From assembly GCA_964426385.1 (NCBI GenBank), contig CAYRQF010000002.1, positions 73,037 through 123,816 of the forward strand: a stretch of 50,780 nt of DNA. Reading direction: 5' to 3'. The position numbers and the translations under genes were made by a program. Positions 16,300 to 20,779 of the stretch are shown piece after piece (within the stretch, counting starts at the first letter, position 1; every line of letters begins with the position of its first letter). Source of the DNA: an uncultured Candidatus Saccharibacteria bacterium. Lineage in GTDB: Bacteria > Patescibacteriota > Minisyncoccia > Phycocordibacterales > CSBR16-119. Below the pieces are notes generated by a model that made no database searches, was not told the DNA's origin, and saw only the letters and a list, made by a program, of their open reading frames with translations.

Positions 16300-17153
16300 A
16301 CATCGCTATCATAACTGGTGGGGAATCAGGCGAACGGGATATTTCTATTAGGTCTGCCGAGAATGTAAAATTAGTAATAGGTTTTGCGGAGACTGAAACA
16401 TTTATTTTTCCAGAAGATCGGGATAAATTCTTGGCTGTACATAATGGCTTTGATATAGCCATACCAATCATTCATGGAGCGGGTGGTGAGGACGGAACAC
16501 TTCAGAAATTCTTGGGCGATCTCGGTTTGCCGTATATTTTCTCAGGTCCGGAAGCTCACGCCATAGGAATAGACAAGAAGAAGACTAAAGAGCTGGCCGA
16601 ATCCATCGGTATAAAAACAGCGAAAGAAATAAAGACACTTCCACTATTTGCCAAGCCTAGATTTGGCGGATCGTCGGTTGCCTCGGGGCTTTGTAGTAGA
16701 GAGCAAGACGTGGACGAATTAGTCTCGAATAATCCAAACACAGAATTTCTCACCGAAGAATTGATCAAGGGCAGGGAATTTACTGTCGGGGTTATCGAGT
16801 CTAATGGAAAAACTATCGCCTTGCCCGTGATAGAAATAATCCCGAAAGGAGAGTTTTTTGATTTTGAGAACAAGTACGATCCAGCGAAATTAGCCTCGGA
16901 GGTATGCCCGGCAGATATTGGCGAAGATTTAGCTAGAGAGCTCAAAAGGCAGGCTCTCGAAGTTCATAATAAAATTGGCGCCAAACATATTTCACGATCA
17001 GACTTTATGATGACCCACGATGGCGAGATATATTTTTTAGAGATCAATACTATCCCAGGCATGACAAAGACATCGCTCATCCCGAAGATGCTCCAAACAG
17101 CTGGAATGAATCTACGAGAATGGTTGAAAGAGCTAATATCTACCGTGATATAA
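16296..17153 (+). CDS. ddl: D-alanine--D-alanine ligase
   Basis: IAIITGGESGERDISIRSA, HGAGGEDGTLQ and LEINTIPGMT motifs. ATGA overlap with the upstream gene. Confidence 0.9.
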   Translation: MNIAIITGGESGERDISIRSAENVKLVIGFAETETFIFPEDRDKFLAVHNGFDIAIPIIHGAGGEDGTLQKFLGDLGLPYIFSGPEAHAIGIDKKKTKELAESIGIKTAKEIKTLPLFAKPRFGGSSVASGLCSREQDVDELVSNNPNTEFLTEELIKGREFTVGVIESNGKTIALPVIEIIPKGEFFDFENKYDPAKLASEVCPADIGEDLARELKRQALEVHNKIGAKHISRSDFMMTHDGEIYFLEINTIPGMTKTSLIPKMLQTAGMNLREWLKELISTVI

Positions 17154-17191
17154 TAAAACAAATAGGATTTATTAATTTAATTTGAATTCAT

Positions 17192-17329
17192 ATGTCTATA
17201 GTAACTATCGCAACTATCGTATTTTTTCTCGTCTACGGTGTTAGTCACTTCTATCCATTCAAGTATTCTGACAGGATCAGCGCCATCGCAGCTATAATCG
17301 TCGGAGTCTTGATGCTCGTCCGATACTAA
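17192..17329 (+). CDS. possible 45-aa two-helix membrane peptide
   Basis: Hand-found ORF below the track cutoff: MSIVTIATIVFFLVYGVSHFYPFKYSDRISAIAAIIVGVLMLVRY. I see no recognisable RBS. Confidence 0.3.
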   Translation: MSIVTIATIVFFLVYGVSHFYPFKYSDRISAIAAIIVGVLMLVRY

Positions 17330-17361
17330 AATTATAAAATCTATTTTATCTATAAAAGTCT

Positions 17362-17486
17362 ATGAATCCCGTTAGTGGTCGCGGTCGCTGATAGGGAAAG
17401 GTTCTTAATAAGATTGTCATTTTGTGTTTATTATTTTAATTTTGGATAGGGGTACTAAAAGCGCGACCTATCACTAACGGGATGAA
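17362..17486. mobile_element. MITE-like inverted-repeat element, copy A
   Basis: ATGAA | TCCCGTTAGTG ...(115 nt total)... CACTAACGGG | ATGAA. The terminal inverted repeat is a perfect 12 bp if the flanking A/T is included. The right-hand ATGAA contains the start codon of 17482..17850. Confidence 0.55.
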
Positions 17487-17850
17487 CAAAGGCTGGAAAA
17501 TTACATATTATATTTCGACGACAATATTGGTGCTCAGTATGCTCTGGGGTGGATATCTCGATGCTAGCCAGAATGAGCTAGCGGTTGCCGGCATCACATC
17601 TCTCGGCTACCCAGCGTATTTCGCTGTGATTATCGGTGTAGCGAAAATTCTCGGGGTTATAGGGATACTTCAGAACAAGGTTAGGTTTCTGCGAAGCTTT
17701 GCATATGCCGGATTCACATTCGATACTCTCGGGGCAGTCGTCTCGACTCTCCTCGCTGGTATGGCATTCATGTACGCAGTTCCGGCCCTAATCAGTCTCG
17801 TTATCGTTATAGTGTCATTCATGGCGGCGAGGAAGACTGGACGGGTCTAA
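17482..17850 (+). CDS. DoxX-like membrane protein
   Basis: 122 aa, 4 TM segments. GYPAYFAVIIGVAKILGVIGIL resembles the DoxX-like family. Confidence 0.55.
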   Translation: MNKGWKITYYISTTILVLSMLWGGYLDASQNELAVAGITSLGYPAYFAVIIGVAKILGVIGILQNKVRFLRSFAYAGFTFDTLGAVVSTLLAGMAFMYAVPALISLVIVIVSFMAARKTGRV

Positions 17851-17911
17851 AACTTAGTATAAAGCGAGTATCTCCTGTATACTGACTACCTTACCTTTAA
17901 CACACAAACAT

Positions 17912-17995
17912 ATGTCAGAAGAAGAAATCAAGAAAGAAGGTGAGGAAGTTGCTGAGCCTGCAACACCAGAGACAACAGAAGAAACACCTGCATAG
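17912..17995 (+). CDS. possible 27-aa acidic peptide
   Basis: Hand-found ORF MSEEEIKKEGEEVAEPATPETTEETPA, followed by a 13-bp-stem terminator. The coding status is uncertain. Confidence 0.25.
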   Translation: MSEEEIKKEGEEVAEPATPETTEETPA

Positions 17996-18013
17996 TCCTA
18001 CTAGGAATATGTC

Positions 18014-18050
18014 GCAAAATAGCTCCTATCCGGGAGCTATTTTGCTGTTT
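18014..18050 (+). terminator. intrinsic terminator
   Basis: gcaaaatagctcc-loop-ggagctattttgc followed by tgtttt. Confidence 0.65.
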
Positions 18051-18097
18051 TACAAGCCTCTCGGGGTGTGGTAGTTTTATGACAAACACCGAAGAAC

Positions 18098-18895
18098 ATG
18101 AACACAAGCACAGCGTTATCTGTCGACCATTGGGTTGACGAGCATTTGCGTAAGAACCCATACCCCGGTCGCGTGATCGTGATCGGCCAAAATGGCGCAG
18201 GAGAGCCTACCGTCGTTTATGGCATTATGGGTCGTAGCAGCGACTCCAGGGACCGCGGGTTCATCCACGATCCTGCTTCGCCAAACGACGTGGTTAGGAC
18301 TGCCACGGCAAGCGGACGTGAATTGCCTCCTGAAAAGGCGGCGCTCGTCATCTATCCAGCCATCGCCGTCAAGCGGCTCGCTGGCGGAAGGCAGGCCATC
18401 TTCGTCACGAACGGCGAGCAGACACAGGGACTGCTCGACAATGTCGGTAACGAGGACGAGTTCGAGAGTGTCCTCAGCCGGTACAACTACGAGCCCGACA
18501 AGCCGAACTACACAGCTCGGATATCTGGGATGATCGCCGTGAACGAAAAGGGTGGCTGGCCGAAGCTTACGCTTTCGATCATCACACCCGATCAGAACGA
18601 CGAAACTGATCCGCCGAGAGCCATACGAAGGACATTCTCCGATCTCGAGGTGAAGAACGGTCAGGGGCACATGCTCACCACATACGCAACCGACGGCAAT
18701 CCTTTGCCGGCATTCCAATACGGAGAGCCATTACCGGTTCCTCTGTTCGGTGGAACTGAGGATATCGCGAACTTCTACTGGGCTGCGCTCAATGAGGACA
18801 ACCGTGTCGCCTTGGTGGTTCGAACATTCGGCAATGATGGATCACCACGCGATATGCACATCATCCACGGACGGGGCACGCCTATACAAGGCTGA
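18098..18895 (+). CDS. purO: archaeal-type IMP cyclohydrolase (PurO family)
   Basis: YPGRVIVIGQNGAGEPTVVYGIMGRSSDSRDR, TNGEQTQ and YEPDKPNYTARISG match my memory of PurO signatures. About 60% GC by hand count of single lines. Confidence 0.7.
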   Translation: MNTSTALSVDHWVDEHLRKNPYPGRVIVIGQNGAGEPTVVYGIMGRSSDSRDRGFIHDPASPNDVVRTATASGRELPPEKAALVIYPAIAVKRLAGGRQAIFVTNGEQTQGLLDNVGNEDEFESVLSRYNYEPDKPNYTARISGMIAVNEKGGWPKLTLSIITPDQNDETDPPRAIRRTFSDLEVKNGQGHMLTTYATDGNPLPAFQYGEPLPVPLFGGTEDIANFYWAALNEDNRVALVVRTFGNDGSPRDMHIIHGRGTPIQG

Positions 18896-18915
18896 ACTGA
18901 CCGAACCGACTCATG

Positions 18916-18955
18916 CCGGGTCCCCACAGATGTGGGGACCCGGTTTCATTTTTTG
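18916..18955 (+). terminator. intrinsic terminator
   Basis: ccgggtcccca-cagatg-tggggacccgg (11-bp stem) followed by tttcatttttt. Confidence 0.7.
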
Positions 18956-18970
18956 GTATAATCTTTACAT

Positions 18971-19183
18971 ATGAAAACATTTGGATGGATAATAGTATTA
19001 TTGGTAGTCGTATTCTTGTTCCCGAAGCCTTTTACTTCGAGTCCAGGATTCACCACGCCTGAATTCGCGCAAGAATTTGAGGCGAACAAGAAACAGTGTG
19101 CAGGCTTCGAGATGCTTACGAACGCAGAACAAATGGCTGCTGACGCTCCAGGAAAAAGTCTGTGCTTCGGCTGGCTTTACTAG
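18971..19183 (+). CDS. small secreted or membrane protein, unknown function
   Basis: 70 aa with an N-terminal hydrophobic helix. The TAG stop directly abuts element copy B. Confidence 0.45.
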   Translation: MKTFGWIIVLLVVVFLFPKPFTSSPGFTTPEFAQEFEANKKQCAGFEMLTNAEQMAADAPGKSLCFGWLY

Positions 19184-19309
19184 ATGTATCCCGTTAGAGA
19201 TTTGCTGTTTGATTTTAAACCCTAAAAGTTTATTAACCTTTGAGCTTGTTGAGGTAGATATTTAATAATTAATACGCAAAATTAATTTTGCTATCTCTAA
19301 CGGGATGTA
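19184..19309. mobile_element. MITE-like inverted-repeat element, copy B
   Basis: ATGTA | TCCCGTTAGAGAT ...(116 nt total)... ATCTCTAACGGG | ATGTA. The terminal inverted repeat is a perfect 14 bp if the flanking A/T is included. The right-hand ATGTA contains the start codon of 19305..19532. Confidence 0.55.
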
Positions 19310-19532
19310 CATAAAACTAAAAGTCTTCCCAGATCAGAAAAAAGAGGCTTTTGCTGTGGTTGGTGAGAACCGGTTCGAGGCGAGGGTACGAGTCCCTGCC
19401 GAGCGTAATCTGGCCAATACGAGGGTCATAGAGCTTACTGCAGAGCATTTCGGTGTGTCAGTAAAACAGGTGCGCATCATCAGTGGACACCACCACCCGA
19501 GCAAAATCCTGTCGGTGGAAAATGGTGATTGA
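19305..19532 (+). CDS. DUF167 (YggU-like) protein
   Basis: 75 aa. The pattern KV.P......F........E.RV..P....AN..VIELTAEHFGV....V.I.SG resembles YggU. Confidence 0.7.
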   Translation: MYIKLKVFPDQKKEAFAVVGENRFEARVRVPAERNLANTRVIELTAEHFGVSVKQVRIISGHHHPSKILSVENGD

Positions 19533-19582
19533 TCATGTGCTAAAATATGTTTACAAAATAAACTTATTTTTAATTAATTTTT

Positions 19583-20779
19583 ATGGAATCTAGATCTACC
19601 ACGAATGTATTATTGATCATCCTTATCATTGGAGTAGTTATATTCGGCGTTCTATTTTTGAAGCAGCAGAAGCAGGTAGTTGAGGTATCGAACGAATGGC
19701 CTGAGACAGTACCAGCAACACCGACGAATAATTATCCGAACCCTAATCAGAATACAAATCCAAATACGAATCCTAATCCAACCCCTAATACCAACCCAAA
19801 CCCTGGCCAGACACAGTCACTGCGGACATTTAGCAAGGATGGAACTCCTGTAACGTTCCAGTATCCTTCGAGATTTGGAGCGCTCCAGTCCGTCATGTAT
19901 GTAAACGACGGTAATTATCTCGTCGGGATAGGTTCAGGAGATTCTTCCGTCCATGTCGATATAGTGTCAACAGGCTATCCTGACCATAATGAAATAGAAG
20001 TCCGTACCACAGCTCAGTACAATCAGATGAAGACTTTTTATGCAGGAACAGAATATCTCGATGCTTCGGGCAATATCTACTTCGTAGCCAATGGTAAGAC
20101 TCCCCCTTGCGACATGGGCGTCATATGCTCGCAGGGATTAGTGGGCGTCAAGAAGCTTCCCGGCAACGGTTACGGCTTTACATATGCATTGGTCATAGCG
20201 AAGTCGACCAATATCTCCATGGAAGAGTTCAAGAAAGTCACCGCTTCTATCAGTATCCTAAATTTACCACCAAGCCCTGAGAATGCCCCTGCTGCCTTCA
20301 TCCAGCCAGGATTCTTGAGCTATCCGTCGCCTACAGTTACATTCAATCATACGTCTTCTTTTCAGGGGGAACTCAAGGATCTATATGAACAGCGCTTAGG
20401 CGAGGATTTCCTCGATATGGCTCCGAACTTCGCTTCTTACTACAGAATAGGAGTTGTGGGCTGTGGAACCAGTTGTTGGGGACATGTGGTTATAGATCTC
20501 CGAGATGGTAAGTACTATAAAGTCCCTGACGGTAGCGGTAACGCATTCAGTTCCCAGGCGAATAGCAAGCTTTTTATAGGCGTAAATGTGCCGAATTATA
20601 CAGATTATCCGGATCAGGCCCTCGTAGTAGAACTTGAAGCTAAGAATAGGGAAGCCAAGGTTAAATGGTATTCGTTCTCTGAATCAACCAAATCTTTCAC
20701 TTATATAACTACTGGATACTGCAACATTATGGAGGGTACGAATGGGGCGAGCGCTACCGTTACGAGTTGCATAGAGTAG
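19583..20779 (+). CDS. membrane-anchored extracellular protein with an Asn/Pro-rich linker, unknown function
   Basis: N-terminal TM segment, then NPNQNTNPNTNPNPTPNTNPNPG low complexity, then a ~320-aa domain with no family I recognise. Confidence 0.6.
   Translation: MESRSTTNVLLIILIIGVVIFGVLFLKQQKQVVEVSNEWPETVPATPTNNYPNPNQNTNPNTNPNPTPNTNPNPGQTQSLRTFSKDGTPVTFQYPSRFGALQSVMYVNDGNYLVGIGSGDSSVHVDIVSTGYPDHNEIEVRTTAQYNQMKTFYAGTEYLDASGNIYFVANGKTPPCDMGVICSQGLVGVKKLPGNGYGFTYALVIAKSTNISMEEFKKVTASISILNLPPSPENAPAAFIQPGFLSYPSPTVTFNHTSSFQGELKDLYEQRLGEDFLDMAPNFASYYRIGVVGCGTSCWGHVVIDLRDGKYYKVPDGSGNAFSSQANSKLFIGVNVPNYTDYPDQALVVELEAKNREAKVKWYSFSESTKSFTYITTGYCNIMEGTNGASATVTSCIE

Follow-up and report, generated by a model that had tools for sequence, protein, structure and literature searches.

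Short hairpin elements on start codons in a Saccharibacteria genome are probable deletion derivatives of a GIY-YIG nuclease element spread through Patescibacteria

INTRODUCTION

Bacterial miniature inverted-repeat transposable elements (MITEs), such as Correia/CREE of Neisseria, RUP of Streptococcus pneumoniae and ERIC/IRU of enterobacteria, are non-coding sequences of ~100–150 bp whose long terminal inverted repeats (TIRs) form a hairpin flanked by a short duplication; they occur in many copies at transcription units, are deletion derivatives of a coding parent and are polymorphic for presence and absence. Here we describe two elements alike in all these respects, copy A (17367..17481, + strand) and copy B (19189..19304, + strand), in a 50,780-nt stretch of DNA (the window, to whose first letter all coordinates refer) from an uncultured Candidatus Saccharibacteria bacterium (assembly GCA_964426385.1, contig CAYRQF010000002.1, positions 73,037–123,816 of the forward strand). 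Both sit exactly on the start codon of a gene, and they differ from the described MITEs in that the probable parent encodes an 84–87-amino-acid (aa) GIY-YIG nuclease instead of a DDE transposase, that the target is a start codon (NTG-N-A) instead of TA or another short motif, that the orientation relative to the gene is fixed, and that the ends are conserved phylum-wide rather than genus-wide.

Several other described systems resemble these elements in part. The UPF0213/COG2827 proteins (BH0048, 1ZG2; EF2693, 1YWL) and the Slx1 domain are the best sequence and fold matches of the encoded protein, and they too are single-domain nucleases. Slx1 is a eukaryotic repair nuclease that requires Slx4; to our knowledge, the UPF0213 proteins have neither an assigned function nor a reported mobility, and we know of no member of either group that is bounded by hairpin arms. 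The palindrome-associated transposable elements (PATEs) of IS200/IS605 and the repetitive extragenic palindromes (REPs) with their REP-associated tyrosine transposases (RAYTs) are likewise very small and hairpin-dependent, insert in one orientation at a 4–5-nt target and have abundant non-coding derivatives, whereas they use an HUH Y1 tyrosine transposase and separate subterminal hairpins and make no target duplication. The GC clusters and ‘byp’ elements of yeast mitochondria are also short mobile hairpins with short direct repeats that are tolerated in or near coding sequence since translation copes with them, but they are organellar, GC-rich and without a linked nuclease gene, and the byps are bypassed by the ribosome instead of lying upstream of a restored start codon.

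Free-standing GIY-YIG homing genes (T4 seg and the I-TevI family; PMC2988022) are similarly selfish, have a GIY-YIG nuclease as sole product, and lie between or in front of host genes with which they are co-transcribed. In contrast to the protein described here, the T4 seg and I-TevI enzymes comprise ~200–250 aa with a separate DNA-binding domain, use double-strand-break repair to home to a single allelic site, and have no inverted-repeat ends, target duplication or MITE derivatives. The nearest published note concerns the rRNA genes of bacteria of the candidate phyla radiation (CPR), where GIY-YIG open reading frames (ORFs) were found in short insertions resembling neither group I nor group II introns (PMC11270868). 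These share the phylum and the GIY-YIG ORFs, but are located in rRNA genes and not at start codons, and the passages of that paper describing them report neither arms nor target repeats. A full-text literature search returned no account of the ends reported here, and neither MITEs specific to start codons in CPR bacteria nor GIY-YIG elements that combine inverted repeats with target duplications were found described. The window elements are thus MITEs, a known kind, whose parent, target and expression strategy are, as far as can be told, new.

RESULTS

Copies A and B are mobile insertions on gene start codons

Inspection of the sequence bore out the layout of both elements that the original prediction, made from the letters of the window alone, had given. 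Copy A reads ...gtct ATGAA TCCCGTTAGTG...CACTAACGGG ATGAA caaagg, i.e. 115 nt between a left target repeat (17362..17366, +), which is the former start codon plus 2 nt, and a right repeat (17482–17486) that supplies the ATG of the DoxX-like gene (17482..17850, +; its ortholog in the relative L122 carries Pfam DoxX_2). Copy B, predicted as a second element with the same termini, reads ...ctag ATGTA TCCCGTTAGAG...CTCTAACGGG ATGTA cataaa, with 116 nt between a left repeat (19184..19188, +) abutting the TAG stop codon of the upstream gene (18971..19183) and a right repeat (19305–19309) opening the DUF167 gene (19305..19532, +; NCBIfam TIGR00251, E = 3.2e-15). The ends of the two match while their interiors are unrelated, and when the window was scanned generically for any inverted repeats between TGNA repeats, they were the only copies found.

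Syntenic relatives were retrieved by protein search with the IMP-cyclohydrolase-like gene between A and B, followed by contig look-up; the closest homologs are 56–59% identical and keep the synteny. Where copy B lies, both relatives (L121, ctttactagATGTAtataaaactaaaagtcttccc; L122, ctttactaaATGTAtataaaaataaaagtcttccc) have a single ATGTA and no element, and where copy A lies, L122 (aaaatatATGAAtaaaggctggaaaattacgtattat) has a single ATGAA and no element. The empty-site junctions read ‘...ctttacta(g/a)ATGTAtataaaa...’ in L121/L122 and ‘...aaaatatATGAAtaaaggctgg...’ in L122, and alignment to them leaves single gaps of 121 nt for B and 120 nt for A, corresponding to the element plus one repeat. 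The DoxX-like gene is itself missing, together with copy A, from L121 (4783–4807) and from a contig in sequencing run X6, which joins window positions 17324 and 17878 through 25 nt identical to L121 and retains the small membrane-peptide ORF upstream (ending at 17330). In the JGI metagenomes, no relatives were found via the IMP-cyclohydrolase-like gene; Logan contigs from six runs of wastewater and freshwater samples did not extend far enough to compare filled with empty alleles, and yielded other family members and a relative without DoxX.

Further signs of mobility were present among copies elsewhere. Head-to-tail tandem pairs with one ATGAA between them occur at four loci (L064 5471–5712, L112 6502–6722, L091 3563–3802, L015 7672–7895), the arrangement that a second insertion into the regenerated target should produce, and copies 91–96% identical precede different genes of a single genome (L066, L073). 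With the empty sites in two relatives, the tandem and near-identical copies, and the 5-nt flanking repeats across the family and the protein-coding parent with the same ends, both described below, copies A and B are real mobile insertions placed exactly on gene start codons, in agreement with the predicted non-autonomous transposable element.

Full-length elements with the same arms encode a GIY-YIG protein

A gene enclosed by matching terminal repeats, which the prediction had suggested seeking as a transposase, does exist, but it encodes a GIY-YIG nuclease and not a classical transposase. It was recognised in a 276-nt copy of a Parcubacteria genome (RAAC4_OD1_1, locus L077), which has the same arms and an interior consisting of a complete GIY-YIG ORF (PF01541, E = 3.6e-16, 59.6 bits versus a Pfam cut-off of 22.6). 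Protein search with its product returned 373 clusters 80–88% identical to it, with lengths of 83, 84 or 92 aa, the named ones all being Patescibacteria; the 92-aa forms begin with MDPVRD or MNPVRD, which is the left target ATG read through the left arm. A metagenome scan contained at least 479 relatives among its first 600 pattern matches. We extracted 62 full-length copies with the same arms, spanning 275–282 bp and built of a target repeat, a 14-bp arm, ~8 nt and then the ORF. Their terminal inverted repeat, named P1, is TCCCGTTAGAGAT...ATCTCTAACGGGA (14 bp), and their sole gene encodes the 84–87-aa UPF0213/Slx1-like GIY-YIG nuclease, so that none of the known transposase types (DDE, HUH, serine or tyrosine) lies between the arms. 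We infer that the product of this ORF is the mobilising enzyme.

The gene runs into the right arm and ends in either of two ways. Class I genes (84 aa) end in ...TCC TAT CTC TAA CGGG ATG, with the stop codon inside the right arm and 4 nt before the host ATG, while class II genes (87 aa) end in ...CTA TCT CTA ACG GGA TGA, where stop codon and host ATG overlap as ATGA, or in a TAA or TAG supplied by the flank; gene calls place the next gene 5 nt after the nuclease stop. Of the 62 full-length copies, 43 are inserted right at the start codon of a ≥60-aa ORF, and class II copies, which need a stop codon from the flank, are nearly all at ATGAA. Some class II copies (L168, L197, L208, L215, L219) stand at (A/G)TAAA, the flank providing the TAA stop of the nuclease, and the rule for sites looks like NT(G/A)(A/G)A, with class II needing a stop codon.

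The short copies, A and B among them, retain P1, a second stem (P2) and only the last ~20 nt of the gene, so they would be non-autonomous deletion derivatives of such a parent. One 120-nt element (L096) with a truncated N-terminal half of the nuclease is a deletion intermediate.

The family is widespread and duplicates ATGNA

The wider search for copies was made in one genome per species with a 20-base paired-end pattern, ATCCCGTTAG-N(83-113)-CTAACGGGAT, and returned at least 120 loci, against about 17 expected by chance on our own estimate. Among the loci listed, nearly all belong to the one phylum Patescibacteria, in metagenome-assembled genomes (MAGs) assigned to Saccharibacteria, Paceibacteria, Kaiser-, Nomura-, Wolfe-, Levy- and Kerfeldbacteria and comparable groups. 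A few elements are also found in MAGs labelled Omnitrophota, Gammaproteobacteria, WOR-3 and Sedimentisphaerales (L016, L045, L052, L074, L062, L065). Neither the short nor the full-length paired-end pattern matched any viral contig of IMG/VR, and a viral origin was rejected.

The listed loci hold 131 elements of 103–133 nt, 95 of which have identical flanking repeats (ATGAA, 71; ATGGA, 20; ATGTA, 2; ATGCA, 1; ATAAA, 1), the left and right N of ATGNA being nearly always equal. The search pattern had required the core to be preceded by A and followed by T; to remove this bias, elements were re-detected from the core alone. Of 151 re-detected at ORF starts, 104 have a 5-nt repeat, which is ATGNA in 100, and 4 have a 4-nt repeat with only the first base differing (e.g. 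GTG on the left and ATG on the right), bearing out the 5-bp target duplication with an ATGNA preference proposed from the two window copies. Across 123 copies the most common length of the complementary ends is 14 bp. Three near-identical pairs occupy different sites, too few to tell whether N travels with the element.

Related hairpins were also noticed. A second family with different arms is represented by L049 4546–4677 (CCCGGTTAGTACAAT...ATTGTCCTACCGGG, flanks CATG...TCATG) and L007 5485–5618 (CCCGGTAGGACAAT...ATTGTACTAACCGGG, flanks GATTG...GATTG). A variant left arm, CCCATTAG, occurs in L011 7174–7238, L100 570–662, L017 1126–1233 and L006 (~3949); read in the orientation of the gene, these copies have CTTG or CCTG directly before the element with only TG repeated, and the same left flank recurs in the full-length L143, L148 and L149, which may mean that the duplication is shorter or that the target start codon was TTG or CTG.

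Insertions favour start codons beyond a preference for the pentamer

The ATG at the element end opens an ORF that is ≥60 aa long or runs off the locus in 120 of 133 cases (median 224 aa), whereas among ATGRA sites overall just 30% begin an ORF of ≥60 aa. When the element was removed in silico, no possible start codon lay between the upstream in-frame stop and the right-hand ATG in 85 of 115 cases. ATGRA occurs in noncoding sequence (537 sites) no less often than at ORF starts (≤451), hence the preference for start codons exceeds a taste for the 5-mer combined with loss of intragenic insertions. The 115 downstream proteins, products of unrelated housekeeping genes, hit 146 Pfam families with none shared, PheT, L9, topoisomerase I, RRF, SSB, Adk, MurG and T2SS-F among them. 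Insertion thus occurs at NTG-N-A, overwhelmingly at the start codons of genes, with a 4–5-nt duplication (ATGNA) that keeps an intact ATG on the right.

No preference was seen for leaderless genes or for genes lacking a Shine-Dalgarno (SD) sequence, since SD-like motifs precede 15% of targeted versus 17% of control genes, and −10-like hexamers 4–10 nt upstream of the ATG precede 21% versus 20%. In the control genes themselves (L001–L120 and the window), SD-like motifs are rare upstream of ORF starts (the same 17%), and −10-like hexamers peak 6–9 nt before the ATG in ~20% of genes versus a background of ~1% per position; judged from such motifs, this suggests that leaderless mRNAs are common in these Patescibacteria loci.

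The interior is oriented relative to the gene as well, as 57 of 123 copies have the YCCT motif just within the 3′ arm and 5 have it in the inverted position. A few short copies (L070, L040, L023 1783–1905, L077 5457–5579, L008) have an inverted P2 hairpin, adjoining the 5′ arm, with normal flanks; an inversion by recombination between the arms is possible.

Two stems are conserved by compensatory changes

Covariation was determined from an alignment of 54 full-length copies, with 500 shuffles and slid-partner controls. P1, formed by the arms, is paired at 99.6% with both-side changes in 8 of its 14 pairs, and P2, in which the LRKRL-motif codons pair over 10 bp with the gene's final codons, one base from the right arm, is paired at 97.6% with both-side changes in 4 of 10 pairs. 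The observed values were reached by 0 of 500 shuffles, and slid partners paired at 29–48%. Arm variants accordingly stay complementary, as in CCCGTACG/CGTACGGG, CACGTACG/CGTACGTG and CCCGTTAA/TTAACGGG of full-length copies and CACGTTAG/CTAACGTG and CCCGCTAG/CTAGCGGG of short ones. P1 positions 12–14 covary in the short copies too, where P2 is also retained, either 3 nt inside the 5′ arm (type 1, e.g. A) or as a local hairpin inside the 3′ arm (type 2, e.g. B). The centroid DNA fold of a full-length copy includes both stems. That P2 pairing is kept wherever its partner strand lands would point to a folded single strand, rather than to two separate duplex binding sites.

In copy A, the 5′ arm of P1, ATCCCGTTAGTGGT (17366..17379, +), pairs with ATCACTAACGGGAT (17470..17483, +), and the 5′ arm of P2, GGTCGC (17383..17388, +), with GCGACC (17463..17468, +), according to both the minimum-free-energy and the centroid fold, making P1 and P2 nearly continuous with the AT-rich filler in the loop. 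At its 3′ end P2 arm, T and P1 arm follow one another as they do where the GIY-YIG gene ends (GGCGCTTCC-T-ATCTCTAACGGGAT), and P2 of copy A is homologous to that of the full-length elements. In copy B, P1 is formed by ATCCCGTTAGAGAT (19188..19201, +) and ATCTCTAACGGGAT (19293..19306, +), and P2 is the local hairpin GCAAAA-TTAA-TTTTGC (19276..19291, +), again followed by T and the 3′ arm and located as in other type 2 copies. The repeat finder returned arms at 17366–17394/17455–17483 for copy A and 19188–19201/19293–19306 for copy B (14 nt, 100% complementary). The 14-bp end pairing takes in the last base of the left repeat and, on the right, the A and T of the gene's ATG. On the + strand, the folds of A and B were more stable than all 200 shuffles of each (z = −3.1 and −5.7, respectively).

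From the old start codons only short ORFs can be read, MNPVSGRGR* of 9 codons in copy A (17362..17391, +), which crosses the 5′ arm of P1, and MYPVRDLLFDFKP* of 13 codons in copy B (19184..19225, +); both belong to the class that stops inside the element. Across the family, 33 of 97 short copies can be read from the left ATG to their far end without a stop, 23 of these ORFs ending at the TAA of the arm and 9 at the ATGA overlap, compared with 10 ± 2.8 (maximum 19) in shuffles, which indicates that selection for coupling persists in part of the family.

The IMP-cyclohydrolase-like gene between the two copies (18098..18895) is flanked by two strong terminator-like hairpins with T runs (13–14-bp stems), one upstream (18014–18045) and one just after it (18915–18944). 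The promoter-like TTGTCA-N17-TAATTT that the prediction had located within copy A is present at 17414–17442, but the role ascribed to it, facing the gene, found no support: 4 such matches occur in 17100–19600 versus 4.4 expected from shuffles, and sigma-70-like sites in 123 elements have neither a strand bias (64 versus 59) nor a positional peak. An outward-facing internal promoter was therefore dropped.

The encoded protein is a minimal GIY-YIG domain

The AlphaFold2 (AF2) model of the protein (mean predicted local distance difference test, pLDDT, 90.6) comprises a single domain with no additional DNA-binding domain. The nearest PDB entries by sequence are the UPF0213 proteins 1ZG2 (E = 1.6e-10) and 1YWL (7.3e-5), while by fold 1ZG2 ranks first, followed by the nuclease domain of Slx1 (TMq 0.56–0.70), a branched-DNA nuclease, both ahead of I-TevI and UvrC; TIGR01453, a model of group I intron endonucleases, also matches weakly. 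Y4, Y6, Y17, G19, R27, H31, E51 and N77 are invariant or nearly so and include, by analogy, the residues that are catalytic in GIY-YIG enzymes. Domain match, predicted fold and conserved residues thus place the protein in the GIY-YIG superfamily as a putative nuclease. Some public records of the 84-aa protein (P0085, P0107) are named ‘excinuclease ABC subunit C’, a misleading transfer from the shared domain.

DISCUSSION

Copies A and B are, we conclude with good confidence, internally deleted MITEs of a selfish GIY-YIG element distributed throughout the Patescibacteria, which would be moved by the nuclease acting in trans and would keep the host gene expressed by coupling at the start codon. 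A full-length copy elsewhere in the genome or the population would supply the nuclease, which would recognise the P1 and P2 hairpin, extruded as such or as a cruciform, and cut the hairpin base and the target, the stagger being filled by host repair. Placement on a start codon would give the element, and in full-length copies the nuclease gene, the promoter or transcription and the initiation region of the host gene. Ribosomes starting at the left, old ATG would melt the hairpin and, where the frame is open, terminate beside the new ATG, so that the host gene is still translated by termination–reinitiation; for copies A and B, with their 9- and 13-codon ORFs, translation would at most open P1 and free the real AUG. 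Beyond this, we tentatively propose, at somewhat less than an even chance, that the 84–87-aa GIY-YIG protein is itself the transposase, recognising its own P1 and P2 hairpin, targeting start codons and having the host gene re-initiated; no DNA transposon family before it would have relied on a minimal, structure-specific nuclease of the Slx1 type.

Several observations weigh against this interpretation. Tblastn detected no GIY-YIG gene or similarity in the 50.8-kb window, so a source in trans in this genome is assumed. About 30% of the full-length copies are not at start codons, some being at (A/G)TAAA, and 39 of the 151 re-detected elements, about a quarter, lack a clean repeat. Characterised GIY-YIG enzymes leave 1–2-nt 3′ overhangs, of which a 4–5-nt duplication is not an obvious product. 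Mismatches of the G.T and A.C types, 14 versus 8 in short copies and mixed in full-length ones, single out neither the folding strand nor DNA over RNA. Finally, neither A nor B has a read-through ORF, and the 14-bp stem covers the A and U of the AUG.

An alternative that retains the nuclease is homing-type copying, in which a break at NTGNA is repaired by copying the donor, primed by ATGNA microhomology or by homology between orthologous genes of strains. Homing endonucleases do use this superfamily, TIGR01453 matches the protein weakly, the left and right N of ATGNA nearly always agree, and the location of class II mostly at ATGAA fits an N that travels with the element or is selected. Yet a single domain of 84 aa lacks the DNA-binding domain that gives long recognition sites, and P1 and P2, which have no role in pure homing, are kept even in non-coding derivatives; we regard this route as unlikely. 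A homing endonuclease gene in the strict sense, occupying a single allelic site without duplication, was rejected in view of insertions before 146 families with 5-nt repeats.

It is considerably less probable that A and B are classical MITEs moved by a conventional DDE or HUH transposase, expected between TCCCGTTAG...CTAACGGGA, with the GIY-YIG gene a passenger or a later capture. A TIR with a short target duplication is a hallmark of DDE transposition, GIY-YIG enzymes are not known for 4–5-nt staggers, and the window has no nuclease gene. However, the GIY-YIG ORF is the only gene found between the arms, in all 62 full-length copies, and the right arm and P2 are made up of its own final codons; L096 records a deletion intermediate of it; the ~930 kb around the 131 elements contain no other long arm pairing around a gene; and the arms are conserved across Patescibacteria classes alongside a protein 80–88% identical.

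The remaining alternative, that the elements are a start-codon-sequestering RNA switch of vertical descent and not mobile, which the original prediction had also considered, draws on the A and U of the AUG in the 3′ arm and on stems that do fold more stably than shuffles and covary, but is highly improbable given syntenic relatives without the element at both orthologous sites, downstream genes without a common function, flanking repeats that vary by site, tandem copies, a protein-coding parent, and no Rfam match to the elements in the whole window at gathering thresholds or in 17300–19400 at E ≤ 5. The switch is thereby refuted as sole explanation, and a secondary regulatory effect of inserted copies is possible.

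Other candidates were set aside. IS200/IS605 PATEs and REPs do not agree with a target duplication, with ends that pair together and with a GIY-YIG gene as partner. The hairpin of an integron attC site carries RYYYAAC on its 5′ side and GTTRRRY on its 3′ side and follows a cassette ORF; in the present elements the order is reversed, the 5′ arm bearing GTTAG and the 3′ arm CTAAC, and the inserted unit has no cassette ORF. A likeness of the junction to the anticodon stem of initiator tRNA and to the end of IS10 was dropped as coincidence.

The family would give a concrete role to a large set of small GIY-YIG proteins that have no assigned function, and offers biochemistry a nuclease of very small size whose hairpin partner is defined, as well as a natural system for translation re-initiation and for leaderless or SD-less initiation. 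Presence or absence of the element may serve as a strain-level marker, and annotation should allow for the artefacts that it creates, namely false start codons upstream of genes, spurious short ORFs and N-terminal extensions of 8 residues (MDPVRD...). The genomes of Patescibacteria are tiny and gene-dense and thought to be poor in mobile elements, and this family, found across their classes, copes by landing on start codons and rebuilding them. If the nuclease is indeed the transposase, insertion would be nearly harmless, which would explain how such an element colonised the most streamlined of bacterial genomes.

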